Notes under the pieces: generated by a model
Told to the model about the DNA's origin: nothing
Database searches by the model: none
Seen by the model: the letters and a program-made list of their open reading frames with translations, nothing else
IMG/VR virus record: IMGVR_UViG_3300048592_000244
Location: 32,001-96,000 of that record
Direction: 5' to 3' (one strand)
Source: a virus
DNA length: 64,000 nt
In this document: positions 1-64,000 of the stretch, one piece after another
Numbering within the stretch: position 1 is the stretch's first letter
Layout: each line of letters starts with the position of its first letter
Position numbers and translations under genes: made by a program

Positions 1-1
1 A

Positions 2-94
2 GACATCAAGCCGGGCGACTACATCGTGGTCATCAGGGGCAGAGTGACAGCGATGTCGCCAGAGGAATTCAAGAGGGATTTTGCACTCGTTTGA
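2..94 (+). CDS. 3' end of a small phage protein (partial; ...DIKPGDYIVVIRGRVTAMSPEEFKRDFALV*)
   Basis: Open frame with GC3-biased codons ending in TGA at 92-94, just before the RBS of the next gene. Confidence 0.6.
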   Translation, partial: DIKPGDYIVVIRGRVTAMSPEEFKRDFALV

Positions 95-105
95 GGAAAT
101 AGCCA

Positions 106-645
106 ATGCAGGAAAACTGGAGAGCCATCCCCGGCTACAACGGGCGCTATGAGGCGTCAGACCAAGGCAACATCCGCTCCCTGCCGTGGGAATTCACGCG
201 GGTCATTCGTGGGCGTCTACAGACCTTCAAGAGCAAGTTGAAGCTGATGAAATTGCGCAAGGCCAAGGACGGCTACCTCCAAGTCGATCTGGTGATGCCA
301 GAGGGCAACAAGACCACCATACAGGTACACCGGCTCATATTGATGACGTTTGTGGGACCACCGGAAGAAGGACAGCACGCGTGCCATTACCCTGACCCGG
401 ACAAGACCAACAACAAGCCGGAAAATCTGTGCTGGGCGTCCCGGCAGGAAAATGAGGCGCACAAGCTGGAGCATGGTACACACCAGCGCGGGGAGAATTC
501 CCCCACAGCCAAACTGACTGACGATGACATCAGGGCCATCCGTGCCAGCGATGAAACAGGGACCGTGCTGGCCAAGAGATACCATGTGTCAGACAGCCTG
601 ATCTCGAAAATCCGCAGGGGCCTGAAATGGGCTCATGTGAAATAG
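106..645 (+). CDS. NUMOD4-HNH homing endonuclease with C-terminal HTH
   Basis: N-terminal ENWRAIPGYNGRYEASDQGNIRS (NUMOD4); VHRL...CH..D.DKTNN..ENL.W (HNH); C-terminal AKLTDDDIRAIR...LAKRYHVS..LIS HTH. Confidence 0.92.
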   Translation: MQENWRAIPGYNGRYEASDQGNIRSLPWEFTRVIRGRLQTFKSKLKLMKLRKAKDGYLQVDLVMPEGNKTTIQVHRLILMTFVGPPEEGQHACHYPDPDKTNNKPENLCWASRQENEAHKLEHGTHQRGENSPTAKLTDDDIRAIRASDETGTVLAKRYHVSDSLISKIRRGLKWAHVK

Positions 646-663
646 GAAAAGGAGGAGACCGAC

Positions 664-1248
664 ATGAAGTACAAGACAGCCCTATGCCCACAGTGCTCGA
701 CTGCGCTGGAAAAAGTGAAGAACCCAGCGGGCAGCTACATGAACAACGAGCAGTTCGACGCTGTGAAAGCAGGCGACTGGTTCTGCAAGCTCTGCCGCAG
801 CAACGGCAGGAATAAGATCAACAAGGTCTGCTACTGGTGGGACAAGGAGGTGGACTACGCCATCAACGAGGGCGTCTACGTGCTCGTCAAAGTCAGCGGC
901 GGCATCCGGGTAGCTCAGGTGACGGCAGAGGACACACAGAAGCCCGACTCAGCCTGCGTGCTATTTCCGGGCGGCCACTGCAATGTGCTGCACAACACTG
1001 AGATGGAAATTCTGGAGACCACTGAGAAAATCGACGATGCCCTTCACTATCTGTTCGGGTGCGTGGAAAAAGACGTGCAGAGATCGGAAAAGGTTTTCGG
1101 TTTGCTCAAGGGCATCTGCCGGGAAATCAGGGAGCGTGATCTCGTGGCACCGGATTTCTTCCGTGACCATGACAGGCGTCCGACTACAGACGAGGAGATG
1201 GCCGAGAATATCCTCAAGTACATGAAGCGGTTCGCGCCTGTGAAATAG
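664..1248 (+). CDS. hypothetical protein with N-terminal Zn-ribbon (CPQC...CKLC)
   Basis: AGGAG RBS, two CxxC motifs, typical codon bias. Confidence 0.75.
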   Translation: MKYKTALCPQCSTALEKVKNPAGSYMNNEQFDAVKAGDWFCKLCRSNGRNKINKVCYWWDKEVDYAINEGVYVLVKVSGGIRVAQVTAEDTQKPDSACVLFPGGHCNVLHNTEMEILETTEKIDDALHYLFGCVEKDVQRSEKVFGLLKGICREIRERDLVAPDFFRDHDRRPTTDEEMAENILKYMKRFAPVK

Positions 1249-1317
1249 ACGAGCGACAGGAATGAACGGGTCTGAGCAACCCGCCTGCACCCGCAGATAG
1301 TTCCTGTGGCTCCCCCG

Positions 1318-1364
1318 ACCGGCCCCGTTTGGTTCGTCCCCTGCGGGGCCGGTTCTATTCTCTT
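1318..1364 (+). terminator. putative intrinsic terminator upstream of terL
   Basis: ACCGGCCCCG (1318-1327) pairs with CGGGGCCGGT (1344-1353), followed by TCTATTCTCTT. Confidence 0.5.
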
Positions 1365-1431
1365 GACAAGGACTGAGCCAGCAACGACGATAATCCACGA
1401 GCGAACCCTTGACCGACAGTGAAACAATGCC

Positions 1432-3390: not shown

Positions 3391-3578
3391 TGAAGGACAG
3401 GATCAACAAGGCCAGCCAGTACACTGAACGCAACGCGCAGGAGAAGTACATCTTCGAGCAGGCCAAGCTCTACATGGTGGCGGTGGCTAAGTACGACAAG
3501 ACAGCTACGATGACCGACATCGTGCAGGAAATTAGAGATGCCCTGAGCAGAACTTGGGGCTGGTTAGGAAAAGAATGA
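3387..3578 (+). CDS. small hypothetical protein (MMKDRINKAS...)
   Basis: ATGA overlap with the terL stop and with the next gene. Confidence 0.7.
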   Translation: MMKDRINKASQYTERNAQEKYIFEQAKLYMVAVAKYDKTATMTDIVQEIRDALSRTWGWLGKE

Positions 3579-3787: not shown

Positions 3788-3788
3788 A

Positions 3789-5257: not shown

Positions 5258-5259
5258 TC

Positions 5260-5727: not shown

Positions 5728-7959
5728 ATGCCCGGCATCAACCCAACAGGCATCGCCTTCGCTCAGGAACTCCGTGTGGCGTTCCAGTACAGCCGCTTCA
5801 TTGATGAGTTGAGCAAGAGCATCGCCAGCGACGGGACGTACCAGTCCAGCAACAACACCTTCCGTGATCCCACGTACATCGTGAAGGACAAGGAGGGCAA
5901 CATCAAACGGTACTGGCGCTCACCGCAGGATGCAGCCCGACAGGCGAAGTACGAGAAGTACATGCGGATATTGCTGGAGGGCTTGGACTTCCTCAAGCCT
6001 CAGTGGTATCAGGCACGCCAGTACACGGACACCTCGCATCAGGCTGTCTACCAAGGCTACAATTTCCTCACCCTCATCAGTGAGGCATTCGCTGACCTGA
6101 CGTGCGGTGGTGGTGTCGAGATCAAGACCGGCATCGAGTCCATCGACAAGCTGCTGACTGAGCAGCTTCGCTTCGAGGACAAAATCTACGAATGGATTTT
6201 CGAGGCCAGCGTGTTCGAGTTCGTGGGCGTGCAGGTCGTCACCCACGACGATTCCGGTGTGCTGGAAATTCAGCGCGTTCTGCCTCACTTCCTCTATCCG
6301 ATGTTCCCGAAGAACAAGGAGAACGAGCCCGTCTGCATCAGCAAGAAGGTGTGGATGCAGAAGGAGGACATCTCCGAGTGGCAGCAGATCAGGCCGGAGA
6401 ACACCAGCGACAAGATCGACCTCAACGGTGTGAAATTCGATGGCTTCGTGTTCGAGGAGCGTCACTTCAAGGGCATGGTAGAGAACTACCTGTGGGCTGT
6501 GCATGGCAATCAGATCGTCACACGCGTAGACCTGAAATTCTACGACCCGAACCTCGACGCTGTGTCCCTCACTGGCCTGCCTGACTTCGCAATCAAGCTG
6601 ATCCCCAACAAGGTGATGGTGGGGAAATTCATCAGCGATTGGGACAACATCATCGACATCAACCTGAACTTCAATGACCGCGCAAGCCGTGCAGGCGACC
6701 TGTTGAACCAGTACGCCGAGCCTCAGCTTGTCATCAACGACAGTCAGGCGACCTACGACCCGGCTACGGGCAAGGTCCATTACCGGCGTCCTCGTGGTGG
6801 CGTGATAATGATGCGCCCGCAGGACAGGCACCAGCCGAATTTCATGCAGCCGGGTGTGGACACAGCAGGCACGGAGAACAACCTCAAGTTCCTGCTCGAC
6901 ATGCTGTCCACTCACTCACAGGCTGCTGCTGTGCTGCTGAACCCAGAGGCACAGGGCAACATCGAGAGCGGTGTGGCCTACAAGCTGAAATTGACGCCCA
7001 CGCTCAAGAAGATCGCACGCAGGAAGACTCAGCAGGAAATTGCCGTGAAGGGCCTGATCCTGAACATCCTCGCGGCCATCAACTTCTACCACGACAAGGA
7101 ACTCATCACCCGTGAGTTGGAGGAGCGCGTCAACTCGTCAGACGACATGACCATGCGTACCCGCTGTGAGGATGCACTGGCCAAGATCAATCAGGGCTCG
7201 GTACTGATCTCGCTGGAGTCGTTCGACGACTATTTCTCCAAGCTGGATGTGTTCAACGACAACCCCTACGGCATTTTCATCAGCGACCCTGCACAGGCGA
7301 CCACCGGCGACCAGTTGCAGTACCTCGCTGACGGAGACCTGCTGACGGCCATCGAGAACAAGCGCACTGAGGTGATGGAATATCTCCGGCTGGATGACAT
7401 CCAAGTCGAGATGACTCCTTCCATGCCGCAGGATATTGCGCAGGCTCTTGAGCGCCTTGGTGGCCAGAAGTCCATGAGCCTGAAACGCTACCTCATGGAA
7501 TTCGACGGCTTCACTGAGGAGCAAGCCGAGGAGGAAATTCAGCGCATCATGGACGAGGACCGTGAGGTGATGGCTCAGGGCATCAGCGATTCATCCGTCA
7601 TGCTCAACCCGCGTGGTGGGTTGCAGCAGGCCATCCTCGACTTCGGTCAGACCGATCACCAGCATGAAGTGTTGCTGGACGCAGAGGGCAACGGAATTTC
7701 CGAGCGTGCTCCTGATGGCCACAACCACCGGGTACTCAACGGGCAGGCGCTCATGGAAATGGGCCACACTCACCCTGTGGTTTTCCAGCAGGAGCAGAAC
7801 ACACAGCCTGAGCCGATGATGGCCGGGGCTGGCATGGCACCAAGCAATCAGAACGTCGGAGCCGCAGGAATGAGCCCCGGCGCACCCAGCCAGACTAACC
7901 TACAGAGCACAGCGATAGCTGCTGGCACGACTCCTCAACCCGTTGGTGGGTTCAGGTAG
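5728..7959 (+). CDS. portal protein (SPP1 gp6-like) with internal insertion and His-rich C-terminal extension
   Basis: Position after terL; IESGVAYKLKL..TLKK and DIQVEMTPSMPQD, TEEQAEEEIQRI motifs typical of SPP1-like portals. Confidence 0.85.
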   Translation: MPGINPTGIAFAQELRVAFQYSRFIDELSKSIASDGTYQSSNNTFRDPTYIVKDKEGNIKRYWRSPQDAARQAKYEKYMRILLEGLDFLKPQWYQARQYTDTSHQAVYQGYNFLTLISEAFADLTCGGGVEIKTGIESIDKLLTEQLRFEDKIYEWIFEASVFEFVGVQVVTHDDSGVLEIQRVLPHFLYPMFPKNKENEPVCISKKVWMQKEDISEWQQIRPENTSDKIDLNGVKFDGFVFEERHFKGMVENYLWAVHGNQIVTRVDLKFYDPNLDAVSLTGLPDFAIKLIPNKVMVGKFISDWDNIIDINLNFNDRASRAGDLLNQYAEPQLVINDSQATYDPATGKVHYRRPRGGVIMMRPQDRHQPNFMQPGVDTAGTENNLKFLLDMLSTHSQAAAVLLNPEAQGNIESGVAYKLKLTPTLKKIARRKTQQEIAVKGLILNILAAINFYHDKELITRELEERVNSSDDMTMRTRCEDALAKINQGSVLISLESFDDYFSKLDVFNDNPYGIFISDPAQATTGDQLQYLADGDLLTAIENKRTEVMEYLRLDDIQVEMTPSMPQDIAQALERLGGQKSMSLKRYLMEFDGFTEEQAEEEIQRIMDEDREVMAQGISDSSVMLNPRGGLQQAILDFGQTDHQHEVLLDAEGNGISERAPDGHNHRVLNGQALMEMGHTHPVVFQQEQNTQPEPMMAGAGMAPSNQNVGAAGMSPGAPSQTNLQSTAIAAGTTPQPVGGFR

Positions 7960-8005: not shown

Positions 8006-9484
8006 ATGGCCTTTGACCTGACACTTGCACGCGGTGGATTCGGCGAGCCCTGCGACAGCCCTGTGGCTGACTACCGCCAGTTTTACCAGATGTACGTGTC
8101 CGTGGATGCACGGTCCAACCCGGCTACGCAGACGAACTGGTTGAATGCGCTGGGTGCTATCTTCGGCACCACCATCGACACCTACGCACACTGGTCGAAG
8201 ATGGACAAGCACGCTCGTCGGCGTGTGCTGGAATACGCTCGCTGCCAGATCGAGGTGAACGTGTGGTCGTTCATGGCCCTCGGTCCTCGCCCGCCTGAGC
8301 AGTTCCTGATCGACTCACACCAGAGCGGGAATTTCCTGCGCAAGCCTCAGCGTGAGGTGGACGCCATCATCATGCGCTCCGAGTTCAACCACATCACTGA
8401 GCGCGGGGATGACCCGGCGCTGGCTGCCATCGCACTCACAGCCCTTGGCCTGCCCAGCACTCCGCTGGCGCTATTCAAGGATTGGGATGCGACCACGGCT
8501 CGTGCTGTGCTGAGTTTCCTGCGCATCTACGGCTCGGCCTACGAGAGCATCGTCAACGCCGACGACAACGAACTGGATTATCAGGACGTTGCCACGGGCG
8601 CACGCTTCTCCGCAGCCAGCCGCCATGACGCGACCTTCATGGACTTCATGGAATTTCACTCATGGCTGGCAGAGGCGACCTTCTGGCACGTCTCGCCCAC
8701 CGACCTGTTTGACGAGATCACGCAGACGGAAGTCGGCGTGGATGCGCTGGACGCCACGCAGGCAGAGGCGCTGGAATTGTTCAGCCTGCTTCGCGGCGTA
8801 GGTCAGGTTGCTGGCAAGCAGCGTCACATGGACATGCCCAAGGCGATTTACTTCGCCCAGCTTTCCGCCTACGGCTACCTGCCGTCGATGGACGTCCTGC
8901 TGTTCGGCCTGACGGAAAACATCGCTCTGCGCGATCTGGACGGCAACGTCATCGCCGGTCGCGTCTACATGCGAGCGCAGGCACCGATCAACGGCTCACA
9001 CCCGCAGCGCGACACATGGGTGAACACCGGCGCACAGGTCTTCGAGATGGTGGTCGAGGTGCCTGCCGGGCAGACGCCGGATCACATCGAAGCTGTGGTG
9101 GACGTGCTCCAGCCGAGCGCAGGCACACGCTGGTTCAATTTCAGCGGGCCAGCCGCCGTGGACGCCGACACATTCACCATGACGCCTGTGGTGGACGTTG
9201 CAGGAAAAACCCGCTGGACAATCGACGCCACCAAGGCAGCGAAGTGGGCCGCTGGTGAAAACATCATCGGTGAGTTCGTGCTCGCGCAGGGACCGCACCT
9301 CAAGATGTCTCCTGCCAACGGCATCCCCGTGGAGAACGTCAGCCTGCTGGTAGAGGACGGCGCGTCCGACGAATCCGCTCTCTACAGCGTGGTGCCGAGC
9401 CGCGTGCTGACCGGGCTGGAAATGCCGCCCACACGCACGCCTGTCTTCGCGCAGCGAGCGTCAGGTACACTCGACAACCTGTAG
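8006..9484 (+). CDS. 492-aa hypothetical protein, probably an abundant virion component
   Basis: GGAG RBS, strong codon bias, own putative promoter and a 3' UUCG hairpin; no family recognised. Confidence 0.75.
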   Translation: MAFDLTLARGGFGEPCDSPVADYRQFYQMYVSVDARSNPATQTNWLNALGAIFGTTIDTYAHWSKMDKHARRRVLEYARCQIEVNVWSFMALGPRPPEQFLIDSHQSGNFLRKPQREVDAIIMRSEFNHITERGDDPALAAIALTALGLPSTPLALFKDWDATTARAVLSFLRIYGSAYESIVNADDNELDYQDVATGARFSAASRHDATFMDFMEFHSWLAEATFWHVSPTDLFDEITQTEVGVDALDATQAEALELFSLLRGVGQVAGKQRHMDMPKAIYFAQLSAYGYLPSMDVLLFGLTENIALRDLDGNVIAGRVYMRAQAPINGSHPQRDTWVNTGAQVFEMVVEVPAGQTPDHIEAVVDVLQPSAGTRWFNFSGPAAVDADTFTMTPVVDVAGKTRWTIDATKAAKWAAGENIIGEFVLAQGPHLKMSPANGIPVENVSLLVEDGASDESALYSVVPSRVLTGLEMPPTRTPVFAQRASGTLDNL

Positions 9485-10231: not shown

Positions 10232-10690
10232 ATGGCCATGACGCCACAGGAGAGGAAGGAAGCTGCGCGGATCGAAGATGATCTGCGCAGTATGGCGTTG
10301 AGGATCAACGAGACCAAGCAGAAGATCGACGTAGCAGAGCAGGAAATTCGTGACTTGCAGAAGGCGATGAAGCCGAAGCAGGTGGCAGTACGACGCAGGC
10401 GGTTACAGGTGCTGTACGAGCGCCTGTCTGAAAAGAGCGTTACGAAGGCATCGACATCAGCGGCTCTTTCGGCAGCAGGCATGTCGAGTGTGGCATCAGA
10501 AATTGACGCGCTTGAGCGAGAGGTAGAATTGCTTGAGCGCATGAACACTAAGGAAATTCCCGGCAAGGTGCAGACCAAGCGAGCGCAGATACGTCTGGAA
10601 AAGCAGGTGCTGGAGCGGCTCTACTCGAAGATCAGGGAAAAGAGCAAACGCCTAGACCGGATCAAGCTGAAATTAGGAACAGAGGACTAA
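10232..10690 (+). CDS. basic coiled-coil protein
   Basis: Heptad-rich K/R/E sequence; tight gene packing. Confidence 0.7.
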   Translation: MAMTPQERKEAARIEDDLRSMALRINETKQKIDVAEQEIRDLQKAMKPKQVAVRRRRLQVLYERLSEKSVTKASTSAALSAAGMSSVASEIDALEREVELLERMNTKEIPGKVQTKRAQIRLEKQVLERLYSKIREKSKRLDRIKLKLGTED

Positions 10691-17317: not shown

Positions 17318-18538
17318 ATGTCAGGACCGACGTCTGGACTCCCTGCTGGTTATCCTGCACCGCCCGCTGCGCCGACAGGGCTGGTTCCGCAGGGACAAGC
17401 AGGACCGTATCAGTACGGGAGAAATCGTGGCCAGAACCGGCCCGACATGAACCCGCTCAACAGCCGACCGGCGATGCTGGTGAAAAACAGCGCCCGCAAA
17501 CGCCTAAACGAGTACCTTCGGGACCAAGGGCTCCAGCCCTTCGCAGAGCACGAGGAAATTCCCGGCCTGTTTATCCTGATCGAACTCATGCACATGACCG
17601 TGGAGCCACTGCGCACAGACGCCAACCGCGCCTTCCGCGACATGCCCGTCAAGCTGTCCACCAGCCAGACTGTCCGCACAGTCTGGCGTCGTCTTCCCTA
17701 CGAGGCCGTGCCCTACGAGGCCCGCACATTCCCGCTGCACGTCGCCCGGATGATGCTCCAGCAGATCGAGAATTACAGCTACACGATCTACCCGGAACTC
17801 GTTCAGCAGGGCAACTTGCAGGTCTGGCAGGCGCGTCCACTGATGCAGGGTGAAGGCGTGCAGATCGCGCCGGTGCGCTGGCGTGCGCCGACCCAGCAGG
17901 AATTGAACGCCATGAACGCGATGGCGAATCGCCTCAGCCAGTCAGACGGCATTGCCAGTCGTCGTCCGGGCGGAGGTGGTGGCCTGATGGTGTCGCTCAA
18001 CCCTGAGAAGGACAGACGGGTGATGGACGCCACGCAGACAGCAGAGGCGAAGGGAAATCCCGATGTCCACACATTCCAGCAGCCACAGGCACCGCAAGGA
18101 GCCCCGGCACCGACGCCGGAATATCCGCAGCCGCAGTCAGCACCACCGTCCGCTCCACCGGCGTCGAGCCAGCAGTACGCCCAGACACCACAGGGACAGC
18201 AGGTGCAGCAGGGCCTGCCTCCGCAGCCAGCGCCGCAGATGCAGGTTGACCCGCAGGCGTCACCGCAGCAGGCAGGGCAGAGCACCAGCATGAAGTCCGA
18301 TCTGCATGAGCCTGTGAACGCGACCAACGAGATACCTGAGACAGTCCGCCGCAACACCGCTGCCAGCAATGAAGCGACAGCGGAGGAAAATCAGGAAGCT
18401 CTGGCGGCGGGCCACCGGGAAATCCCCGAGGATGCACCGCCACCGGCGACCAGCAAGGCGCACGTTCCACCGCCGCCAACGACACAGGCGCAAAACCCCG
18501 GCAACGTACCACCTCCGCCTCCGCCACCGACTCGCTAG
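17318..18538 (+). CDS. head-associated hypothetical protein with long Pro/Gln-rich disordered C-terminus
   Basis: AGGAG RBS; position after the capsid gene. Confidence 0.75.
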   Translation: MSGPTSGLPAGYPAPPAAPTGLVPQGQAGPYQYGRNRGQNRPDMNPLNSRPAMLVKNSARKRLNEYLRDQGLQPFAEHEEIPGLFILIELMHMTVEPLRTDANRAFRDMPVKLSTSQTVRTVWRRLPYEAVPYEARTFPLHVARMMLQQIENYSYTIYPELVQQGNLQVWQARPLMQGEGVQIAPVRWRAPTQQELNAMNAMANRLSQSDGIASRRPGGGGGLMVSLNPEKDRRVMDATQTAEAKGNPDVHTFQQPQAPQGAPAPTPEYPQPQSAPPSAPPASSQQYAQTPQGQQVQQGLPPQPAPQMQVDPQASPQQAGQSTSMKSDLHEPVNATNEIPETVRRNTAASNEATAEENQEALAAGHREIPEDAPPPATSKAHVPPPPTTQAQNPGNVPPPPPPPTR

Positions 18539-19008: not shown

Positions 19009-19695
19009 ATGCCTGACAAGGTTCTTGAGCACATCTGCTTCGGGGGCACCATTGAAGGTGGCCCGTTTGACCAACACCGACTCCGCGTGAGCGCCAATCG
19101 TGAGGGCCGCAAGTACGTCCCCAGCGTCACTGTCATGGGGCCTGACGGAATGTATCTACCGGCGAATCCGCTGGAAATTCCATCAGCGATCCTGCGCACC
19201 AGCAAGGAGAGCCCGGCTGCCGCGCTGGACGTAGCATTCAAGGCGCTCTACTTCTACCTGAACAACGAAGTCGCTGCTGCCCGCCTCAGTGAAGTGCAGG
19301 AGGAGTCCAAGCACTGGATTTACCTCGACGAGATGGGCAAGCGCGATTACACGGCCATGCCTGACTACGACACCGAGGAGTACAAAACCTTCCAAGAGGA
19401 GGAATTCAACTACACGCCGCCCAACAGCGAAGCCGTGGTTGAAGCAGGGCTGATGACCATTGGCTCCAGCGCCAGCGTTGAGTCTGACGACGGTGTTGAC
19501 GGCGATGCCGCTGATGTCGGCGGCCAGAGCAAAGGCACGGGGGAGGGAGGTGTTGGTGCTGCCCCCGGCTCCGAGTCGTCTGTAGATGGCAACATGGCCG
19601 CAGACGAGGGCCTCCAGAATTTCCTCAAGAGCAATTCCGGCCTCAACCCGGAACTGTCCAGCACGCAGGGAGTAGGCACCGGCGAGAAGGGCTAA
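19009..19695 (+). CDS. acidic hypothetical protein
   Basis: AAGGAG RBS; typical codon bias. Confidence 0.75.
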   Translation: MPDKVLEHICFGGTIEGGPFDQHRLRVSANREGRKYVPSVTVMGPDGMYLPANPLEIPSAILRTSKESPAAALDVAFKALYFYLNNEVAAARLSEVQEESKHWIYLDEMGKRDYTAMPDYDTEEYKTFQEEEFNYTPPNSEAVVEAGLMTIGSSASVESDDGVDGDAADVGGQSKGTGEGGVGAAPGSESSVDGNMAADEGLQNFLKSNSGLNPELSSTQGVGTGEKG

Positions 19696-19698: not shown

Positions 19699-20517
19699 AT
19701 GCCAGAGACAGTCACGTTCGAGGACAAGGTGATCGACCCGACCACGCTACTCGGCGTGCCGGTGACTGCGTTGACGCTGGAGATCAGGAACCGCAACAAG
19801 GCCCTGCAAGAAACACTGGTCTTTCCTGCGGGAATTTCCGAGATCATCGGTGCCGGTCCTGACTACAGCTACAAGGTCACGGACTTCGACATCAGCGATC
19901 AGGAGAAATTCCCCGGCACGTTCATCTGCGTGCGGTGGTTCGCCACTACAGCAGCCGGTGTCGTGCGCCCGTGGGATCAGGTCGTGTCCATCACCGGCGC
20001 GGCGTCACCCACGATCCCTGCCAACCGTGAGCCCTACATCGACATCACCGAGGCGGAGGAATTTTTCCAGACCCGACTCGACTACGTGGATTGGGACCGC
20101 TTCGACGCCATCACTCAGTTGCGGGCACTCGTCTCCGCCAGCGACTGTCTTGACGGTGAGCGGTACAAGGGTCTGAAAATCCGTTTCTTCGAGACGGACA
20201 CCACGCGCCAGTGGCCCCGCACGATGCCGTTTGAGGAAGCGATGGCCAGCTTCTTCCTTGGCATCGACCGCATCCCCACGCGCATCCGCTGGGCGACTGC
20301 TGTGCAGGCTTTGTACCTGCTCAAGCAGATCGAGCGCGGGCACGATTGGGAGGCACGCCGCGACATGCAGTTGAAGGGCCTGACCGGCATCACCCGTGGC
20401 GATAACAGTGAGCAGTGGTCACTGGAGTTCGCCACGCGCCGGTCGATCTGCGAGGAAGCCTACGAACTGATCCATCCGTTCTTGGCTCAGAGCATCGACA
20501 GCATGAACGCGTATTAG
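19699..20517 (+). CDS. head-tail adaptor (DnaT-like family) with extra N-terminal beta domain
   Basis: YIDITEAEEFF..R...W...RALVSASD.LD...YKG...QWPR...IP.RIR.A motif. Confidence 0.8.
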   Translation: MPETVTFEDKVIDPTTLLGVPVTALTLEIRNRNKALQETLVFPAGISEIIGAGPDYSYKVTDFDISDQEKFPGTFICVRWFATTAAGVVRPWDQVVSITGAASPTIPANREPYIDITEAEEFFQTRLDYVDWDRFDAITQLRALVSASDCLDGERYKGLKIRFFETDTTRQWPRTMPFEEAMASFFLGIDRIPTRIRWATAVQALYLLKQIERGHDWEARRDMQLKGLTGITRGDNSEQWSLEFATRRSICEEAYELIHPFLAQSIDSMNAY

Positions 20518-21712: not shown

Positions 21713-22410
21713 TGCCTGACTTTGACGACCTGTTCGTAGTGATCGAGGAAGGCGAGGACACCATTGAGGTGCGCCAGCGTGCCCCGGTCCAAGGCATGGA
21801 CCCGGCTGCCATCACACGCCACAGGGTCTACCCAAGGAAATTCCGCATCAGGGCTACCATCGCTCAGGCGCTGGCCGTCTACATGGAATCCATCCAATTT
21901 CCAGTGGACATTCCGCTGGCACCGGGTGTCGCCGCAGCCCTCCCTGCTGGCTCGATCCCGATACCCTCAACGGAAATTCACGACTTCATCCCAGCAAAAA
22001 TGTTTGAAAATCTGTTCTGGGGCTTGACTTCGGATGACCTTTTCCAAGACCGTAAGTACGAGGGCAGTTTGGTAGGGTTCCTGTCGGATGCAGGATCGTT
22101 CAACCTGAGAGGGAGGCAAGGTGCCAACCAACAGGTCACGACAGTCGAAGTCGTAGTTGAGTCTTCGCCTGCCCGGACAGCCCTCGATACGGCTATGCGC
22201 TTGTGGTCGATGTTCTTGGAGCCGATTGGTTTCACAGTAGAGTCCGAGTTGCTGGATACACAAACTGGTCAACGGCTGAAAGTCCGACAGCCAGACCTCG
22301 CGGTGCAGCGAGTGGAACCAGCAAACGAACCACGGATACTCGAACGTGTGGGAGCAGGACGCGTCAAGGCAGCTTTCAGGCTCATAGTCAAGTACACACG
22401 GTTTATTTAG
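21712..22410 (+). CDS. putative tail terminator protein
   Basis: Immediately before the tail tube gene; C-terminal alpha/beta pattern ending AAFRLIVKY. Confidence 0.5.
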   Translation: MPDFDDLFVVIEEGEDTIEVRQRAPVQGMDPAAITRHRVYPRKFRIRATIAQALAVYMESIQFPVDIPLAPGVAAALPAGSIPIPSTEIHDFIPAKMFENLFWGLTSDDLFQDRKYEGSLVGFLSDAGSFNLRGRQGANQQVTTVEVVVESSPARTALDTAMRLWSMFLEPIGFTVESELLDTQTGQRLKVRQPDLAVQRVEPANEPRILERVGAGRVKAAFRLIVKYTRFI

Positions 22411-38630: not shown

Positions 38631-41129
38631 ATGTCGGGTACACCCGGTCTTGGAGTAAATGACCCAGAGGGATTCGCCAGTATTCTGACGCCCGATCTGC
38701 CGTTGACCATCGCGGTAGATCAGTCGGCTGGCGACGTACCTATTCCTTTGTCGGTTCTGCCCTTCTGGCGCAACGACGGAGGCTTCCGCAGCTACGGTGG
38801 TGCCACGGTAATTTCCATCTTTGACGCCGCTGGCGTTGAGGGTGTGAGCACGCCTGACATCCCGGCGATTACTGACCAGCCGATCTCGGCGCAGGGCACG
38901 TTCCAAGTCTCGAACCCGGATGCCCAGAAGCTGTACCGCATCATAGTCCGTATCCGTTCGGCAGCCAACGACCCTAATTTCCGCGACTTCATCTGCGTGT
39001 TCCGTTTGATCCTGCCGTTGGAAGTACCCATTGAGTACACCACGCACCTCGATGGCGACATTCCGACGCCGACGTACACAGGCGTGGATTTCTTCTGGGA
39101 CATGGACGCGCCTGTGGTGGAAATTCGTCTACGTGACGGCACAGGCGGCATTCAGCTTCCAAACCTCGCGGCGTCGGCGTGGCCTGCTGCGGCCAAGGCG
39201 TACATGCTGCGCCAGCTACAGAATCTGCGCGACGGCGTGCTCATGGTGGACTTCTACGCCGGTGGTGGAATTTCCGCGTCTACTCGCCGCCAGTTGTACC
39301 ACTACTATTGGGACGGTGCAGCGTGGCAATTCGCCAAGATCAGGCACCGTGATTTCCCTGCATTCGACCCGTACTCCGGCTCGGACCTTGGCGTGGCGCA
39401 GGCAACCATCGACATCGGCGGCGGCAGTGCGCAGTTGGACTTCAATTACAACGCCTACGTCTACGGCCAGCGGTTTGAGAGCTTCATTGTTGTTGGCCCA
39501 ACTGGATTTCTCAACGTGGACCCGAAAGCCATCTTGGCTGGCGGCACGATTGACATTTCCTCCATCATGGACTTCTCGATCCAGAACCTGTTCCATCGCT
39601 TCAACCAGACGGATCAGTACGTCACGATCATTGCCACGACCGAAGAAAAGATCGTCTACCGCCAGATTCCGATATGGCCGACCAGCACTGATCTCGTCAC
39701 CATCGACAACGACAAGCTCGTGCCCGGCACCACGACGCCGGTTCCCACAGACATCCTGCGGGCGCGGTTGGTTACATGGCCGTGGATTGAGTTCCCGAAT
39801 CTTTTGAATTTCCTCACCGTGCCTCCGGGCGGCGTGGGTGCAGACCCGGCAGGTACGATCTACCCGGACCTACTGACGATCAATCTCTACGACGGGCTCA
39901 ACCCCGTCCCCGTGGCTACCTACACCGACGAGGTTGATCTGTGGAACAACATGGTCGAGCTACAGCTACCGAATCAGGGCTTGACCATCCCTGTGCTGGA
40001 CGTGCGGGCGCTGCTCACACCGACCAGTCCGTTTTTCCGCATTGAAGCAGATGTCAGGACTGCACTCAGCGCCCCCGGCACAGCGTACAAGTACATCGCG
40101 GATTTTCCGCTCAACGCGAACGGCGAGCCCGAGGTTTGGGAGCGCGATGACGTGGTGCTGTCCACGATCTTCCCGACGTTCGAGTTTGACGAATGGGGCA
40201 AGGTCAAGGTCACATGGCCGGGCACCGTGGTCTCGTTCAGCACACCGATCACTTTCACCGGCGACGTGGGCTCGATGGACTTCGCGGCTCCGGCTGGACC
40301 GTTCCCTGTCACTGTGGAGTACGACTTGCGCAATGCGGTAATTTCCCGCGAGGCGGCGTACTTCAACATCAATTTCAACGCTGACGATGGCGGCGGCGAT
40401 ATTCCCTATGAGTTCAGGGTGCCGACCAACGTGAAGCACCAGCAGTTGATCGGCCCGACCGACATCAACGTCTTCTTCGCTGGCAACGTGATTGTCTTCC
40501 CGACAGGCTCGCTGGCCGTGATCGACCCGGCGTTCCCGGTGACGTTCATCGGCGACGTCGGGCAGATCGAATTGAACGACCCATCGGAAAATGTCCCGTA
40601 CTTCACCGGGCAGCTTGGAGATGGTGGTGAACGTATTTTCTCGAATCCGCTCCATCCCTATGTGGATGTTGATTTCACTAATGCTGGTGCTGTGCCGTGT
40701 CGGGTTCGTATCCCGAATACTTTTTTCGACATTCGCCAAGCTACTAAGGAGACGTTCGCGGTAGCTTCGCGTGCTCACGGCCCGACAGCCGGTGGTCTGG
40801 CATCGTCGGCGTTCGATTTCTCGGTGCCCAATGCCAAGATCAACCTCGGCACCGGCGAGATCGAGTTTGAGGATGACGGCTCCGGCTTTGCATGGAATTT
40901 CGCAAGCTGGCAGGTCATCTTGGGCAAGACCCTGCGCAGGCAGAAATTCACAGGCACGATCACGGCAGCCACGCCCTACAATATTTCCAGCATCCTGCCC
41001 ACGGTGGCGCTCAATGAGTACGTCTTCGTGGTCTTCAAACACAGGAATGGATTCCAGCGCGTGGGTGCGTATAAGATAACCAACGACTTCGAGAAGGCAC
41101 TCAGGGTAGAGATCGACGCGTTCGTATGA
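38631..41129 (+). CDS. large beta-rich tail protein
   Basis: GAGG RBS; 832 aa, P/F/I/D/T-rich multi-domain beta protein in the tail module. Confidence 0.7.
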   Translation: MSGTPGLGVNDPEGFASILTPDLPLTIAVDQSAGDVPIPLSVLPFWRNDGGFRSYGGATVISIFDAAGVEGVSTPDIPAITDQPISAQGTFQVSNPDAQKLYRIIVRIRSAANDPNFRDFICVFRLILPLEVPIEYTTHLDGDIPTPTYTGVDFFWDMDAPVVEIRLRDGTGGIQLPNLAASAWPAAAKAYMLRQLQNLRDGVLMVDFYAGGGISASTRRQLYHYYWDGAAWQFAKIRHRDFPAFDPYSGSDLGVAQATIDIGGGSAQLDFNYNAYVYGQRFESFIVVGPTGFLNVDPKAILAGGTIDISSIMDFSIQNLFHRFNQTDQYVTIIATTEEKIVYRQIPIWPTSTDLVTIDNDKLVPGTTTPVPTDILRARLVTWPWIEFPNLLNFLTVPPGGVGADPAGTIYPDLLTINLYDGLNPVPVATYTDEVDLWNNMVELQLPNQGLTIPVLDVRALLTPTSPFFRIEADVRTALSAPGTAYKYIADFPLNANGEPEVWERDDVVLSTIFPTFEFDEWGKVKVTWPGTVVSFSTPITFTGDVGSMDFAAPAGPFPVTVEYDLRNAVISREAAYFNINFNADDGGGDIPYEFRVPTNVKHQQLIGPTDINVFFAGNVIVFPTGSLAVIDPAFPVTFIGDVGQIELNDPSENVPYFTGQLGDGGERIFSNPLHPYVDVDFTNAGAVPCRVRIPNTFFDIRQATKETFAVASRAHGPTAGGLASSAFDFSVPNAKINLGTGEIEFEDDGSGFAWNFASWQVILGKTLRRQKFTGTITAATPYNISSILPTVALNEYVFVVFKHRNGFQRVGAYKITNDFEKALRVEIDAFV

Positions 41130-42901
41130 TTACAAGCCTGATTGGTACGAAGCTGGATCAGCGGACGCAGAGCCTTCAACAGAAGCCTGCGTACCAAGTC
41201 CTGCTATTTTCCCGCTGGCTCGACACGGACAGCGACATCGTGCGGGGCACCTACACGCAGACTCCGATGGACGTGACTGAGCAGGTGCAGTCAGCGTCCA
41301 TCAACCTCGACATGGAGACGGACGCGTCGTCAGCCTCCGTCACCTTCGCCATCGACAAGTTGCCGCTGGGTATTTTCTACAACAGCATCATCGTCATCCG
41401 CGAGGGCGACGAACTGGTGGACATCGCAAACTGGCCCACGACGTTCACCGGCTGGCGCATCGGGCAGCCCGGCTCATCGGAAACACTCAAGCCGTTCGCA
41501 GCTACACCGGCGCAAGGTCAGGGCAAGCGCGGCGGAGTCAGACAGGTGACAGTGAATTTCGTTTCACGCGAGCGCCAGTTCGCTGACTTCGAGATCACCA
41601 GCGACGGTGTGTGGCTGCCGAACAGCAAGCCGAACCCGCAGCCGAACTCACCACGCGACGACTACGACGACGTAGGTCTGATTGCGAAGGAAATTGCCAC
41701 AGACTCAAGTTGGGGCATGGGGCTCCAGCCTGATGAAGTGCAGATTGGGCCACTGCCGTATCGCATCGAGAAGCAGCTACAGTTTGTGCAGATTCCCGTG
41801 TGGGAAGCCCTGATGGAGCTTCTACAGGTGCTGCATTTCGTTCCCGGCGTCAATGGTGAGGGGCGCGTCGTTGTCCGCGACCGGAATATCACCAAGGCGT
41901 CCGTGCGCCAGTACCGCAGCACGCACATCGCGGCGATTTCCCAGCCTGACGCCAGCTTCACTCAGGTGAACGCTGTCATCGTCAAGGGCTTGGCTAAAGA
42001 CCTGACCGAAGTCATCAAGCCTGACCAGAAGCTGGTGTCCATCGACGGCACGTTCGGCTTCTTCGACCCGCACATGCAGTTCGAGTCGAATTGGGGCAAT
42101 GACGAGCAGCAGACATACCGCGTGAAAATCGGCGGCGCGGTCACTGATGGTAACGGAAAGACACATGAATCGCCGCGCATCAGGAAATTCCAGACAGAGG
42201 GGTTCATCACCTCTGTGTTTCCGCCTGACATCACTGACGCGAATGAGTTCTACTACAAGGTCGAGATCGAGAACGACACACTGCTGGTGATTGGTCTGCT
42301 GGCCGCCACGTTCGCCGGGTACGTCGCGGGCATGACCATCGCCGCCCTGCTGACCCCGTTCGAGACCGGCACCCCCGGCAACCGGACCACGGTGGACCCG
42401 TTGCAGGTGGTGGCGCAGACGGCGGCATCGCTCCTTCTTCTCGGCGGTCTATTCGTGCTCCAGCAGATCGCCAATTTCCAGTTTGAAATCTGGGGCGTTC
42501 CTTTTGAAACGGTCTATGAAGAACTCAGGCACGACGCCATCCTCGCGCAGTTCTCGCAGATTTCCGGTGGGCAGCCCTTCCGTGAGTGGGAACGCAAAGA
42601 CATCGAAATCAAGAACTACATTTTCAGCACTCTCGCTGATTCGCCGGTTCCTGCGTCGGGTACAGAACCGGCAGTGACAAACCCCGGCATCGAGACCTTC
42701 GCTGTAACTGAGCTTGCTATTCAGCTTGCCCAGCAGGGATCGCGTGAACTGGAGATGGTGCGGGATATTCTTCTGGAGCCAGCCGACATCATCACCGATC
42801 AGGACTCTGGCTTCCGTTACTTTGTCAAGTCGATCACCCGTGAACTGATTCGCGGGGAGTCGCCGAGCACGCAGCAGATCACTGCGTTCAGGGTGCCGTA
42901 A
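41126..42901 (+). CDS. baseplate hub / tail tip (Tal-like) protein with internal hydrophobic hairpin
   Basis: DVTEQVQSASI, WEALMELLQ..HFVPGVNGEGRVVVR, VNAVIVKG, LLEPADIIT...YFVKSITREL hub-type motifs. Confidence 0.7.
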   Translation: MITSLIGTKLDQRTQSLQQKPAYQVLLFSRWLDTDSDIVRGTYTQTPMDVTEQVQSASINLDMETDASSASVTFAIDKLPLGIFYNSIIVIREGDELVDIANWPTTFTGWRIGQPGSSETLKPFAATPAQGQGKRGGVRQVTVNFVSRERQFADFEITSDGVWLPNSKPNPQPNSPRDDYDDVGLIAKEIATDSSWGMGLQPDEVQIGPLPYRIEKQLQFVQIPVWEALMELLQVLHFVPGVNGEGRVVVRDRNITKASVRQYRSTHIAAISQPDASFTQVNAVIVKGLAKDLTEVIKPDQKLVSIDGTFGFFDPHMQFESNWGNDEQQTYRVKIGGAVTDGNGKTHESPRIRKFQTEGFITSVFPPDITDANEFYYKVEIENDTLLVIGLLAATFAGYVAGMTIAALLTPFETGTPGNRTTVDPLQVVAQTAASLLLLGGLFVLQQIANFQFEIWGVPFETVYEELRHDAILAQFSQISGGQPFREWERKDIEIKNYIFSTLADSPVPASGTEPAVTNPGIETFAVTELAIQLAQQGSRELEMVRDILLEPADIITDQDSGFRYFVKSITRELIRGESPSTQQITAFRVP

Positions 42902-44971: not shown

Positions 44972-45570
44972 TCTACACGTACAGCATCGGCACCTATTTT
45001 CCAGAGGGCAACCTCGACACGCGCATCCTGCACGACACGATTGGAAATTCCTCAATCACGGGTGTGCTCATTGGCCTCCACACCGAAGGCGACGACCTCA
45101 AGGTGGAATTTCAAGACGCGCTCTCTGTACCAGACAAAGACCTCCTCGACGGTTTGATTGAAGCTGCGCCAAACTCAATGGGCTTACTCATCAAGGCTAA
45201 GGAAAAGAGGTACGTCGAGATCGACGAACGCACCTCCGAACTGATCGGAGAGGGGTTTACTTACGACGGCAAGATTTTCAGCTTGTCACGACAGGCGCAG
45301 TCAAACATGCTGGGTGTCAGGGCCGCCATCGCTGACTACCGGGCCTCAGGTACGCTGTCAGCCTTTGAGGCGGCGTTCTTTCCGCTGAAATTCAACACGC
45401 TCGACGACACCGATTCTACCGGGCTGGCCCTCGTAGATGATTTCCTCACGTTCTATGACACCGCGATGGGCACTGTGCGTGCCTACTTGGACGGTGGCAC
45501 CGCTCTCAAGGCAGCCATACGCGCAGCCGTAGATATAGCAGGAGTGGATGCGGTCGTAGACGAAAGGTGA
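44968..45570 (+). CDS. tail fibre assembly protein (DUF4376-like)
   Basis: AKEKRYVEIDERT..LI..GFTYDGKIF...AQSN...LKAAIRAAVDIAGVDAV pattern. Confidence 0.75.
   Translation: MIYTYSIGTYFPEGNLDTRILHDTIGNSSITGVLIGLHTEGDDLKVEFQDALSVPDKDLLDGLIEAAPNSMGLLIKAKEKRYVEIDERTSELIGEGFTYDGKIFSLSRQAQSNMLGVRAAIADYRASGTLSAFEAAFFPLKFNTLDDTDSTGLALVDDFLTFYDTAMGTVRAYLDGGTALKAAIRAAVDIAGVDAVVDER
45528..45535 (+). promoter_or_regulatory. CGTAGATA putative late promoter element
   Basis: 47 nt before the patatin ATG. Confidence 0.45.
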
Positions 45571-56481: not shown

Positions 56482-56816
56482 CTGTATTCTCCGTGGAAAA
56501 TCACACGAGGTAGGAATGGTGCTTGTAGTGATGACCGATATTCTTCGAGTGTCTGGTCTGACTTTTTGAGATTGCAGTCTGGGCAGGAGGGGGCGCGGTT
56601 GCTTTTTGCGTGCGACCCGTTTCGGCTTCTAGGCACGACATGATCCATGTGCCGGAAATTCAATTCCTCACCGCAATAGAAGCAGTGATTGGGGCTGATA
56701 TTTTCAGGCAATGGCGGCAGCGGTAGGAATTTCCCGTGACTGTTGACAGTCACGTCTACGCCGACGATGAGTTCTCGTCGCTCGCGTGCGGCATGGCCGC
56801 CTTGAGATTGTCGCAT
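56478..56816 (-). CDS. small HNH endonuclease (McrA/HK97 gp74 type)
   Basis: CFYCG...DHVVPRSRNGS....N.APSCPDCN..K; AAGGAAAGG RBS before ATG 56816. Confidence 0.88.
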   Translation of the reverse strand: MRQSQGGHAARERRELIVGVDVTVNSHGKFLPLPPLPENISPNHCFYCGEELNFRHMDHVVPRSRNGSHAKSNRAPSCPDCNLKKSDQTLEEYRSSLQAPFLPRVIFHGEYR

Positions 56817-60756: not shown

Positions 60757-60864
60757 TGTCCAGTGGGCCGTGTGGCCTGCTGGAATTTCCGTTTGTCTGT
60801 CCGGGCATTCTGTCCGGCCAGTTTTGTCCGCCCGGTCTATCCGGGCACAGTGGAGGCTATTGCC

Positions 60865-61146: not shown

Positions 61147-61153
61147 GCCCACA

Positions 61154-61185
61154 GGGGCTGGCCGGAATTTCCTCCGGCCAGCCCC
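61154..61185 (+). terminator. 13-bp hairpin after the early gene
   Basis: GGGGCTGGCCGGA-ATTTCC-TCCGGCCAGCCCC; no U-tract. Confidence 0.5.
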
Positions 61186-62114: not shown

Positions 62115-62132
62115 CCCGGAGGATATTCCCGT

Positions 62133-62357
62133 ATGAAGGAAATCGCTCTTTTCCGTCGTCTCGCCGTCTATGGTGTCCACGACCGCAACTTCGTCTGCTT
62201 CCGTCGCGTTGACGGCAGCTACGGGGTGTACGACAAGCTCACCAACGAGCAGTTGTTCACCATCGCTGAGGACGAAGCCTACAACACGTTCTACCTCGGG
62301 CGTGAGACCGCTGCCAAGTTCACCTTCTTGGACAGCCCATTCCGCAAGTCGGCCTAA
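62133..62357 (+). CDS. small early protein
   Basis: GGAGG RBS; typical codon bias. Confidence 0.75.
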   Translation: MKEIALFRRLAVYGVHDRNFVCFRRVDGSYGVYDKLTNEQLFTIAEDEAYNTFYLGRETAAKFTFLDSPFRKSA

Positions 62358-62464
62358 GACCGGCCAGCAATCAGCGCACTGAGCGCATCGAGCGGGAGCT
62401 ACGACGATGCCGGGCTTCGTGTGCTGTCTGCTGTTCGTTCCTAACCCACCAAGGAGGAAAAGCT

Positions 62465-62704
62465 ATGCACGCAACAAAACTCGAAGCACGCAAGAAGTTC
62501 GACGCTCTGTTCTCCCAGAAGCAGCCGACGCGGGAGGAAATGTTCATGCGTCCTGACTTCCGGGTGCTGGCCGCGATGGTCGGCATGAATTTCGGCCAGT
62601 GCTGGGATGCGTTGGTCAACAAGGCCAGTGCCACGAAGTACGGCGGCAACATCCTGCTGGCCGCCGAAGACTGGTACGGCGAAGTCTCGGCTCCCCGCTT
62701 CTAG
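62465..62704 (+). CDS. small early protein
   Basis: AAGGAGG RBS; typical codon bias. Confidence 0.75.
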   Translation: MHATKLEARKKFDALFSQKQPTREEMFMRPDFRVLAAMVGMNFGQCWDALVNKASATKYGGNILLAAEDWYGEVSAPRF

Positions 62705-62712
62705 GAGGAGCC

Positions 62713-62907
62713 ATGTCGGAAAAACAGCGTCATATCCGTTTGCGCGTCGAAGTCCGTGACGCGCTGGGCGCGTTGGTACTCACCTACGCATTCTGGCTGG
62801 ACGATCACGTCGCACGCCGGGCATTCGCTGCCCGGTGTCCTGACGCGTGGTTGGCTGGCCAACGCATCACCACGTTCAAGGAGAACGCCGATGGCAGTGA
62901 ACTATGA
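62713..62907 (+). CDS. small early protein (MSEKQRHIRLRVEV...)
   Basis: AGGAGGAG RBS. Confidence 0.7.
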   Translation: MSEKQRHIRLRVEVRDALGALVLTYAFWLDDHVARRAFAARCPDAWLAGQRITTFKENADGSEL

Positions 62908-63499
62908 TTTCACCCGGATAGACCGGGACATCTGGCTGAGTCTGTTTTTCGGGCTTACTCAGGAGCGCATCGACAGCGACAACGACCACTATGGGCTCGA
63001 ACCGGAATTGCCGATCAAGCCCGATGAGTGGGTTGACGCGGTACACTCGCCGTGGTTCAAGCCAGACCCGGAGAGCGACAAGCCTCTGGACAAGCACGGT
63101 GTTGAGCAGGGCTGGGTCATCATGGCCCAGCACAGTTTCGTCCACAACGTGATGATGGCGCTGATCCCCTGTATGCCAGCGCCGGGCTGGGGCCTGTCGG
63201 ATAAGAACATCGACGAGGCTGTCCGCCGCGTTCTGATCTATCAGGAAGTCACCGGCCCCTTGGGCAGTAAATTCGTCGGCCCGTGGATTCTGCCGCAGAA
63301 GAAACAGCGCAACTTCTGGGAGCCGTACTACGTCACTGAGGAGGAAATTCGCAAACTGAACGGCTTGTCCGTGAATTTCTCCACGGTGAACATCTCCACG
63401 TTCCGCAAGACCGTCGAGCGGTGCCTTGAGGAAAAGGTCGCCCAGCGTGCCTACCGGGCGAAGAAGGAGGCAGAGGAGAAGATGGCCAAGACCGGGTAA
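62891..63499 (+). CDS. hypothetical early protein (MAVNYDFTRIDRD...)
   Basis: AAGGAG RBS before ATG 62891; typical codon bias. Confidence 0.75.
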   Translation: MAVNYDFTRIDRDIWLSLFFGLTQERIDSDNDHYGLEPELPIKPDEWVDAVHSPWFKPDPESDKPLDKHGVEQGWVIMAQHSFVHNVMMALIPCMPAPGWGLSDKNIDEAVRRVLIYQEVTGPLGSKFVGPWILPQKKQRNFWEPYYVTEEEIRKLNGLSVNFSTVNISTFRKTVERCLEEKVAQRAYRAKKEAEEKMAKTG

Positions 63500-63709
63500 T
63501 CTCACTCCTCGGTTGAGGCCAGTGCCCCGACGTGGAATTCGGTGGGCGTCGGGGCACGCATCTCAACTGACGAAGGAGGTGCCCTATGAAACGCTAACAC
63601 AGACATTGCTTTGGAAAAGTTGAGTACACAAAAGGTGGAGTACCGAAGCACGGGCCATCGGCGATCACGCCTTTGGCCCGTTGTTCGTTTCTCCCCGTGA
63701 GGAAATTCC

Positions 63710-64000
63710 ATGACCAACCATCCGCCCTTCCAGCGGCCTGATCGTTTCGTGCCTTGGGACAGCGAAATGATCGCCCAGCTTCCATCCGGCCAGAGCCGGG
63801 CGTGGTTCGTCACGCTTGACCAGCACGGTGAAGTCAGCACTGGCCGGGTGCTGAACATAGACACCCGCCGTGAGTACGTCTGGTTTGTCGCAGCCAACGG
63901 TAAGATCACTGTCGAGGCAGAGGTGCCGAAGCATGTGGTCAAGACTGTGCGGAGTCTGCTGGTGCGTCCGAAGCGAGACGAACTGACTGAGGCAGCCAAG
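63710..64000 (+). CDS. hypothetical early protein, truncated by the window edge (MTNHPPFQRPDRFVPW...)
   Basis: GAGG RBS; frame open to the end of the window. Confidence 0.65.
   Translation, partial: MTNHPPFQRPDRFVPWDSEMIAQLPSGQSRAWFVTLDQHGEVSTGRVLNIDTRREYVWFVAANGKITVEAEVPKHVVKTVRSLLVRPKRDELTEAAK

Follow-up and report, generated by a model that had tools for sequence, protein, structure and literature searches.

The phage genome and its dispersed word

The stretch of DNA analyzed here, hereafter the window, comprises 64,000 nucleotides (bases 32001-96000) of a single viral contig of 106,113 bp (IMG/VR record IMGVR_UViG_3300048592_000244), the remaining stretches of the same genome being designated L088, L089 and L090. 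Along its whole length (positions 1..64000) it carries a dispersed array of the short word GGAAATT, with 90 copies distributed over both strands, 48 on the plus and 42 on the minus strand. The whole contig shows a G+C content of 57.7%, and gene calling recognized 148 genes that cover 94% of the genome, are located nearly all on the plus strand and present a G+C content of ~75% at third codon positions. The genome is that of an uncultured tailed phage of activated sludge. Its window contains genes for the large terminase (TerL, 1432-3390), an SPP1-type portal (5728-7959), a tape-measure protein of 2,791 residues (24869-33244), a DnaB-like helicase (57713-59143) and a DnaG-like primase (59136-60146), and further recognized genes encode an SbcC/SbcD-like pair, a RecA/UvsX-like protein, a helicase and an O-like initiator. 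Word counts given below refer to the whole genome unless the window is named.

An earlier note on this DNA had reported an enrichment of the nine-base near-palindrome GGAAWTTCC (W being A or T) in 17 exact copies, all of which were confirmed at their positions. Copies of the form GGAATTTCC are found within the portal gene (7693..7701, read as GGA-ATT-TCC, G-I-S), gene 8006-9484 (8328..8336, phase 1, G-N-F-L), gene 19699-20517 (19831..19839, phase 0, G-I-S), the tape-measure gene (25742..25750 and 25988..25996, both in phase 0 and read as G-I-S, and 29752..29760, phase 2, A-E-F-P) and gene 38631-41129 (39267..39275, phase 0, G-I-S). The same form also appears at 56726..56734, adjoining a hairpin in the intergenic DNA from which the initiator gene (minus strand) and the helicase-primase block (plus strand) diverge, at 60782..60790 in intergenic DNA, and at 61164..61172 in the tip of a G+C-rich terminator-like hairpin with 13-bp arms at each side. 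Copies of the form GGAAATTCC lie in genes 10232-10690 (10552..10560, phase 2, K-E-I-P), 17447-18538 (17554..17562, phase 2, E-E-I-P), 19009-19695 (19173..19181, phase 2, L-E-I-P), 21712-22410 (21836..21844, phase 1, R-K-F-R), 41126-42901 (42183..42191, phase 1, R-K-F-Q) and 44968-45570 (45043..45051, phase 0, G-N-S), as well as directly upstream of an ATG (63701..63709), where GGA also serves as the ribosome-binding site of gene 63710-64168.

Fewer than one copy of this near-palindrome had been anticipated by chance, in agreement with dinucleotide-preserving shuffles that yielded 0.40 ± 0.53 copies, with a maximum of 2 and none of 100 shuffles reaching 17. The form GGAAATTTCC is likewise present at 54370 (genome position 86370), one-mismatch forms are common, as exemplified by GGAAATTCA with 33 copies versus 1.0 expected, and copies occur in all three codon phases and also in non-coding DNA.

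The enriched unit

Despite its abundance, the near-palindrome does not behave as the unit under enrichment that it had been taken for. Its 22 copies genome-wide are to be compared with the 24.7 that a maximal-order Markov model predicts from overlapping sub-words, while the base that follows GGAAATTC is A in 33 cases, C in 22, G in 14 and T in 11, C therefore not being the commonest. Since the 9-mer is no more frequent than its sub-words predict and C is not favored at that position, the palindrome is not the unit, and the proposal of a dimeric protein sitting on it is not supported. The enriched unit is instead the asymmetric GGAAATT, or its core GAAATT, with the 9-bp near-palindrome as a by-product. 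GGAAATT reaches 157 copies in the 106-kb genome (96 on the plus and 61 on the minus strand) against a second-order Markov expectation of ~9, and 135 of these 157 copies stand outside the near-palindrome, whose opposite strand holds only the weaker variant GGAATTT. GAAATT is present 155 times in the window and 267 times in the genome (39 expected), GGAAAT 262 times (43 expected), and GAAATTC, which forms a quasi-symmetric G-W5-C frame, 146 times.

Single-letter scans gave at the first position G (16.6-fold) over T (5.2-fold), A (4.8-fold) and C (1.7-fold), followed by G-A-A-A, by T over A, by T over A, C and G, and finally by C over G over A over T. The family consensus can thus be written as G>T>A, then G-A-A-A-T-T, then C>G, its weaker variants including GGAAAAT, GGAATTT and GGAAATA, and enrichment is graded over one-letter variants in the manner of a binding-site matrix. 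No conservation was detected beyond ~8 matrix positions, nor any bipartite partner within 15 bp of the word. An expectation-maximization motif search with an order-0 background converged on codon periodicity, and its result was not used. When GAAATT, GGAAAT and GGAAAWT are pooled, 608 sites are obtained, with ~162 expected in genes; mean densities are of about one exact GGAAATT per 0.7 kb and one family member per 0.2-0.3 kb.

Coding constraints and codon use

Most GGAAATT copies (140 of 157, 89%) lie inside genes, and their number was accordingly compared with several coding nulls. A per-gene shuffle of synonymous codons, keeping protein and codon usage, produced 19.4 ± 4.0 copies against the 140 observed, and a codon-order shuffle produced 9.2. 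A Markov chain Monte Carlo version of the synonymous shuffle, in which none of 49 words banned from this genome (see below) was allowed to be created, raised the figure only to 23.4 ± 4.2. Against this constrained null, all of the 16 top enriched 7-mers of the genome belong to the GGAAATT family. The Euler shuffle that preserves dicodons, and with them the anomalous codon pairs, gave 73.6 ± 6.0 copies of GGAAATT, and 8.3 ± 3.0 of GGAAWTTCC versus 18 in genes, with none of 100 shuffles attaining 18. Both words consequently exceed the dicodon-shuffled null, whereas counts not above it would, according to the earlier note, have refuted the observation.

Enrichment extends to each of the six classes of frame and orientation, from 3.6- to 24-fold, and the effect is visible in the choice of codons for particular residue pairs. 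Glu-Ile is encoded as GAA-ATT 71 times where codon usage predicts 16.9, Ile-Ser as ATT-TCC 41 times (5.3), Gly-Asn as GGA-AAT 20 times (3.0), Asn-Phe as AAT-TTC 45 times (13.4) and Lys-Phe as AAA-TTC 50 times (17.7). Codons wholly contained within family words account for 30% of all ATT and AAT, 22% of AAA and 20% of TTT. Selection at the DNA level, independent of protein sequence, is strongly supported by these data and concurs with what the earlier note had proposed, as the synonymous, ban-keeping and dicodon shuffles all fall short of the observed counts. GGAAATT and its close variants thus exceed by about six to sixteen times what chance, codon usage or protein sequence would provide, and the DNA itself is probably read by something.

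Layout of the array

Spacing between sites is near Poisson but slightly more even, with coefficients of variation of 0.85-0.94, pairs closer than 30 bp rarer than expected and gaps that reach 3.4 kb at most. No helical periodicity of 10-11.5 bp was found in the spacing, a check that had been suggested for the near-palindrome. Sense fractions in five genome regions, compared with those of the null, were 0.67 versus 0.71, 0.71 versus 0.69, 0.50 versus 0.56, 0.53 versus 0.69 and 0.67 versus 0.72. The excess of GGAAATT on the plus strand is therefore a coding effect, and orientation is irrelevant to selection, a pattern more in keeping with a feature of duplex DNA than with a polar signal; a parS- or Chi-like signal of the kind entertained in the earlier note is accordingly disfavored.

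A/T runs that measure exactly 5 bp number 521 where 355 ± 17 are expected, while runs of 3 and 4 bp are found at 0.73 times expectation, longer ones are not enriched, and those of 7 bp or longer are depleted. Among the 5-bp runs, enrichment is highest for AAATT (4.0-fold), followed by AAAAT (1.8-fold), AAATA (1.75-fold), AATAT (1.4-fold) and AAAAA (1.25-fold), and runs that contain a TpA step drop to 0.3-0.6 times expectation. The excess of 5-bp runs mostly corresponds to the GGAAATT family itself.

The 17 exact GGAAATT copies outside genes are intergenic or placed at gene boundaries, several of them coinciding with a ribosome-binding site, and two or three being carried on the tips of terminator-like hairpins. 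At window 61150-61185 and at L089:2466-2495, GGAAATTC is observed in the loop or tip of G+C-rich hairpins of this type.

Purged restriction targets

The same genome shows a pronounced loss of restriction-type targets. Of the 64 six-base palindromes, 48 have no site at all in the whole genome, with 10-75 expected for each, and palindromic hexamers add up to 225 sites versus ~1,700 expected. GACGTC, TGGCCA, GAATTC, TGCGCA, ACGCGT and AAATTT are nonetheless found at normal frequency, which points to specific enzymes rather than to a general aversion to palindromes. TTAA occurs once versus 30-115 expected, and CCWGG is absent versus 261. The asymmetric pentamer CAAAT/ATTTG, which differs by one letter from the enriched core GAAAT, is also missing versus 159 expected, so that AAAT is never preceded by C. 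ACTGGG, CTGAAG, CTCTTC, RGATCY, CAGCTC and several 7-mers of the CCTNAGG, CGGWCCG and GCTNAGC type are absent as well, and CCACCC/GGGTGG (2 versus 63) and AGAAAG/CTTTCT (3 versus 40-47) nearly so. CAAAT, CCACCC and AGAAAG are, from their depletion, candidate targets of Type III/IIS-like or other defense systems. On the contrary, the common Type IIS sites GGTCTC and GAAGAC keep their normal frequency, arguing against engineering.

As indicated by the shuffle that respects them, the bans do not explain the GGAAATT enrichment. Both phenomena are possibly related, and the purge is arguably the more striking of the two.

Relatives and natural occurrence

Viral contigs L001-L003, with TerL proteins 43-49% identical to that of the phage, L004 (33%) and unrelated loci all present GGAAATT at expectation and show no excess of 5-bp A/T runs. 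Related and unrelated phage loci and bacterial loci being thus free of the enrichment, a generic bias, which would have undermined the original observation, does not account for it. On these counts, from L001-L004 and the unrelated loci, the word appears to be young and clade-specific. L001-L004 exhibit a milder purge with different sets of banned words, L001 and L003 having no TTAA and L002 no CCWGG. In L001, a 99-kb IMG/VR contig, there is moreover an enrichment of CGATCGC, the central part of the highly iterated palindrome HIP1 of cyanobacteria, which hints at a cyanobacterial host for this relative.

Activated-sludge and bioreactor runs from four independent studies hold contigs 80-99% identical to window 1-20000, and weaker word matches extend to one anaerobic-digester and one aquatic run, making six studies in total between 2016 and 2025. 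This recurrence across six studies indicates that the sequence is natural and recurrent. The idea of an engineered, "domesticated" sequence was rejected, as BsaI, BbsI and BspMI sites are at normal frequency and relatives appear in these six independent studies. Relative to the 80-99% identical contigs, several window segments have been replaced or have diverged, for example 8049-8226 and 13784-14501.

The phage isolate collection returned neither megablast matches nor tblastn matches to the portal, and, for the family-A DNA polymerase (PolA), identities of about 26% to the nearest isolates and of at most 27-28% overall. Scans of viral contigs with TerL and PolA gave a closest match at 49% identity, and a metagenome scan dominated by unspecific peptide patterns gave only a match at 24%, while closer relatives, with TerL 78-87% identical, were found by protein. 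Comparison of TerL with genome contigs reached identities of at most 28%, over matches of any length and mostly to Bacillota prophages. The host was not indicated, the genome carrying no transfer RNAs and a ThyX atlas look-up being uninformative.

Several further genes deserve description. A protein with a sigma-70 region 2 is encoded at window 46447-47301 on the minus strand, beside the SbcCD-like recombination genes, and Pfam recognizes in it region 2 only, without region 4. PolA itself (L088:8292-11309, plus strand, 1,005 residues) has a 3'-5' exonuclease domain and an N-terminal stretch weakly similar to uracil-DNA glycosylases. A 316-residue protein (L088:1214-2164, plus strand) aligns from end to end with PHROG 6247, "DNA topoisomerase" (E 1.6e-98). 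Neither Pfam nor the PDB offered a sequence match to it, and NCBIfam gave no more than a faint hit to a topoisomerase A-subunit model; on this similarity the protein may be a "mini-A" enzyme of the Topo VI-A/Spo11 type that belongs to mobile elements.

Candidate readers

The proteins put forward in the earlier note as possible binders fared unevenly. The winged-helix protein at 56080 is a lambda-O/DnaD-like replication initiator (PHROG E 1e-14), expected to act at the origin and not genome-wide, and the "MuF-ParB" label given to gene 8006-9484 finds no support in Pfam, PHROGs or NCBIfam, the product of this gene matching no family. The protein at 34499-34681 is a small helix-turn-helix regulator. 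As for the remaining two candidates, the basic protein at 9540 matches only a PHROG of no known function, and the one at 60472 has no family match.

The leading candidate, a different protein, is encoded at L088:7358-7753 on the plus strand, ~24.2 kb before the window start and two genes upstream of PolA. Its 131 residues comprise a Lys/Ala/Pro tail resembling histone H1, in which KKxAAKK repeats span ~55 residues, and behind it a domain rich in Trp and Lys that contains the AT-hook core PGSRGRPP. It is the only RGRP protein of the proteome and is, jointly with one other, its most basic member, with an isoelectric point of 10.9. Only six homologues were found in 5.8 billion clusters, 69-87% identical and encoded on contigs of up to 106.7 kb, so far as these searches indicate confined to a close clade. 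Among them the AT-hook core and ~45 other positions are invariant, whereas the Lys/Ala tail shifts between the N and C termini. None of the three distant relatives without the word yielded a homologue, a weak negative in view of records that are ~80% complete. AT-hooks insert their RGR core into the minor groove of about five A/T pairs, the classic case being HMGA on the AAATT center of the interferon-beta PRDII element, GGGAAATTCC. The fit between the AT-hook core of the phage protein and a 5-bp A/T tract is suggestive, and the proposal that this putative reader recognizes GGAAATT is speculative and, in our opinion, doubtful.

Interpretation and alternative explanations

Considering these observations together, the explanation that we tentatively favor, as a possibility and with appreciable doubt, is that members of the GGAAATT family are selected, orientation-free docking sites for a DNA-binding protein on the duplex phage chromosome. 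Such a protein, whose existence we infer from the array, would dock at the family words and mark, coat or organize the phage DNA. It would most likely be phage-encoded, because the word is confined to a narrow clade. If the reader were the H1-like/AT-hook protein described above, the hook of that protein would lie within the minor groove along the A/T tract of 5 bp. Several points weigh against this explanation. A pure minor-groove reader poorly fits the strong preference for AAATT (4.0-fold) over AAAAT (1.8-fold) and AAAAA (1.25-fold), as well as the preference for a 5' GG, and the total ban of CAAAT at least partly explains the strict G before AAAT. The candidate protein belongs to no Pfam, PHROG or NCBIfam family and leaves the Pfam AT_hook model silent. 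Its AlphaFold model is poor (predicted local distance difference test score of 61), and Foldseek searches against the PDB returned nothing below E 2.5. In addition, the reader may be a protein of the host or one of the ~90 phage proteins to which no function has been assigned.

Among the alternatives, it is unlikely that the phage has copied a word of its host, be it a Chi-like signal that tames RecBCD/AddAB (and CRISPR or Argonaute guide acquisition too), an uptake sequence, or a site at which one of the nucleoid proteins of the host binds. GGAAATT resembles Chi in being asymmetric and 7 bp long, a second DNA-level defense adaptation would fit the extreme defense pressure reflected by the purged hexamers, and Lsr2, a host AT-hook-like protein, is required for mycobacteriophage infection (PMC10066036). 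However, the word lacks polarity beyond that of coding, while Chi and signals of the FtsK-orienting polar sequence (KOPS) type work in one orientation; its density lies far beyond what protection of DNA ends would need, and relatives do not have it. The E. coli Chi word itself, GCTGGTGG, shows 3.7-fold enrichment under a first-order model but is at the codon-aware null. Enrichment of Chi in phages, reportedly established for phage P1 and in work by Bobay, Touchon and Rocha in 2013, speaks for a host word, and the G-richness of known Chi words speaks against it. Very unlikely, in turn, is a reader-less element of DNA structure, in which short A-tracts (of A3T2 type and devoid of a TpA step) would act through stiffness or groove geometry, for instance in packaging or in escaping silencing proteins. 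It would account for the excess of A/T runs of exactly 5 bp and for the scarcity of those with TpA, but the absence of 10-11.5 bp phasing means no net curvature, the choice of AAATT over AAAAA and of a 5' GG is sequence-specific, and the excess comes mostly from a single word family. There is only a slim chance that GGAAATT is the template recognition word of the DnaG-like primase (59136-60146), acting with the DnaB-like helicase (57713-59143) and seeding Okazaki fragments every 1-1.4 kb per strand. That primase and helicase are both encoded, and that the per-strand spacing is in the size range of Okazaki fragments, agrees with such a role, yet neither a strand switch nor polarity is seen, and relatives, which may or may not encode a comparable primase, are without the word. 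Known primase words, moreover, have a 3-nt core (GTC for T7, CTG for DnaG) and not 7 nt, a further point against it.

Hardly more can be said for a DNA-modifying enzyme that would place protective methylation or hypermodification marks across the genome, a possibility raised in the earlier note that we consider remote. The defense context of the purged palindromes would suit it, and Elhai in 2015 is said to have linked hyperabundant words such as HIP1 to methyltransferases. Nevertheless, no methyltransferase, transglycosylase or base-modifying family was detected among the 95 non-structural proteins (Pfam E≤0.001), and a modified genome need not purge its restriction sites so thoroughly. A neutral by-product of mutation bias, of codon-pair bias, or of A/T-rich codons squeezed into the contexts left by at least 49 banned words is largely refuted and retains a very slight probability. 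The absence of CAAAT, by forcing G before AAAT, does lend it some plausibility; on the other side, the shuffle that keeps bans, proteins and codon usage reaches 23 copies versus 140, antisense classes are enriched too, a single word family stands out, and related and unrelated genomes lack it. Finally, the view that the 9-bp GGAAWTTCC is the site of a dimeric protein is barely tenable, for the reasons given when the unit was defined (sub-word prediction, base after GGAAATTC and copies outside the palindrome), even though its 17 copies versus 0.4 expected and the G-W5-C frame had made it attractive.

Returning to docking sites for a DNA-binding protein, this explanation can be extended by joining the word to the purge. 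The erasure of nearly all restriction targets from the genome and ~400-600 private GGAAATT-family tags, read by the putative H1-like/AT-hook protein, would then constitute a two-part system of DNA identity, a proposal that we regard as unlikely in its full form. The reader would in that case tell phage from host DNA, and would coat, compact or shield phage DNA during replication.

Comparison with known systems

In cyanobacteria and the phages that infect them, HIP1 (GCGATCGC) and further highly iterated words are likewise maintained by DNA-level selection, with copies by the hundred within genes, whatever the reading frame or strand. HIP1 is nonetheless an exact palindrome common to host and phage, while the word described here is asymmetric, and no methyltransferase was found among the 95 non-structural proteins. 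Chi in P1 and in lambdoid phages lacking RecBCD inhibitors shares with it an asymmetric sequence of 5-8 nt, over-representation and a plausible link to defense; Chi, however, has one orientation and is skewed, whereas GGAAATT is unpolarized beyond coding and much denser. The stoperators of Cluster A mycobacteriophages, bound by the L5 repressor gp71, are similarly many dispersed asymmetric sites for one phage-encoded DNA-binding protein. Stoperators measure 13-14 bp, number ~20-35 copies, and are mostly intergenic and oriented with transcription. On the contrary, the phage word is a 7-mer with 157-600 copies, 89% of them in genes and in either orientation.

The AT-hook sites of HMGA have the same AAATT core, in an A/T tract of exactly 5 bp with G/C at either end. 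HMGA nevertheless possesses three hooks with little flank specificity, while the phage protein has one hook and an H1-like tail and, with no Pfam match, is not an HMGA homologue. Lsr2, required for mycobacteriophage replication (PMC10066036), is likewise a minor-groove A/T reader that benefits a phage, although it is a host protein with no discrete enriched word, while the candidate described here is phage-encoded. Nothing specific was found in the literature on GGAAATT and comparable phage cases. Putative iterated words in other phages are TCCAGAC (phage of 110 kb), TTCCAGAAA (phage of 100 kb) and AGTACT (jumbo coliphages). To our knowledge, selected words at hundreds of copies are represented by few cellular systems (Chi, uptake sequences, HIP1 and KOPS) and have barely been described in phages.

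Implications

The signal reported here is unusually clean, as a single dominant word family, independent of frame and orientation and apparently young, comes together with a candidate reader and a purge of restriction sites. If the host were to have the same word, an uncultured bacterium of activated sludge would prove to carry a new signal of the Chi-like or nucleoid type. If the reader were confirmed, it would reveal a way in which a phage marks and handles its own chromosome, and would provide a tractable pair of sequence and protein. Were the two-part identity system to be true, it would amount to a virus-encoded "self-barcode plus reader", of a kind that, as far as we know, has not been described for phages.

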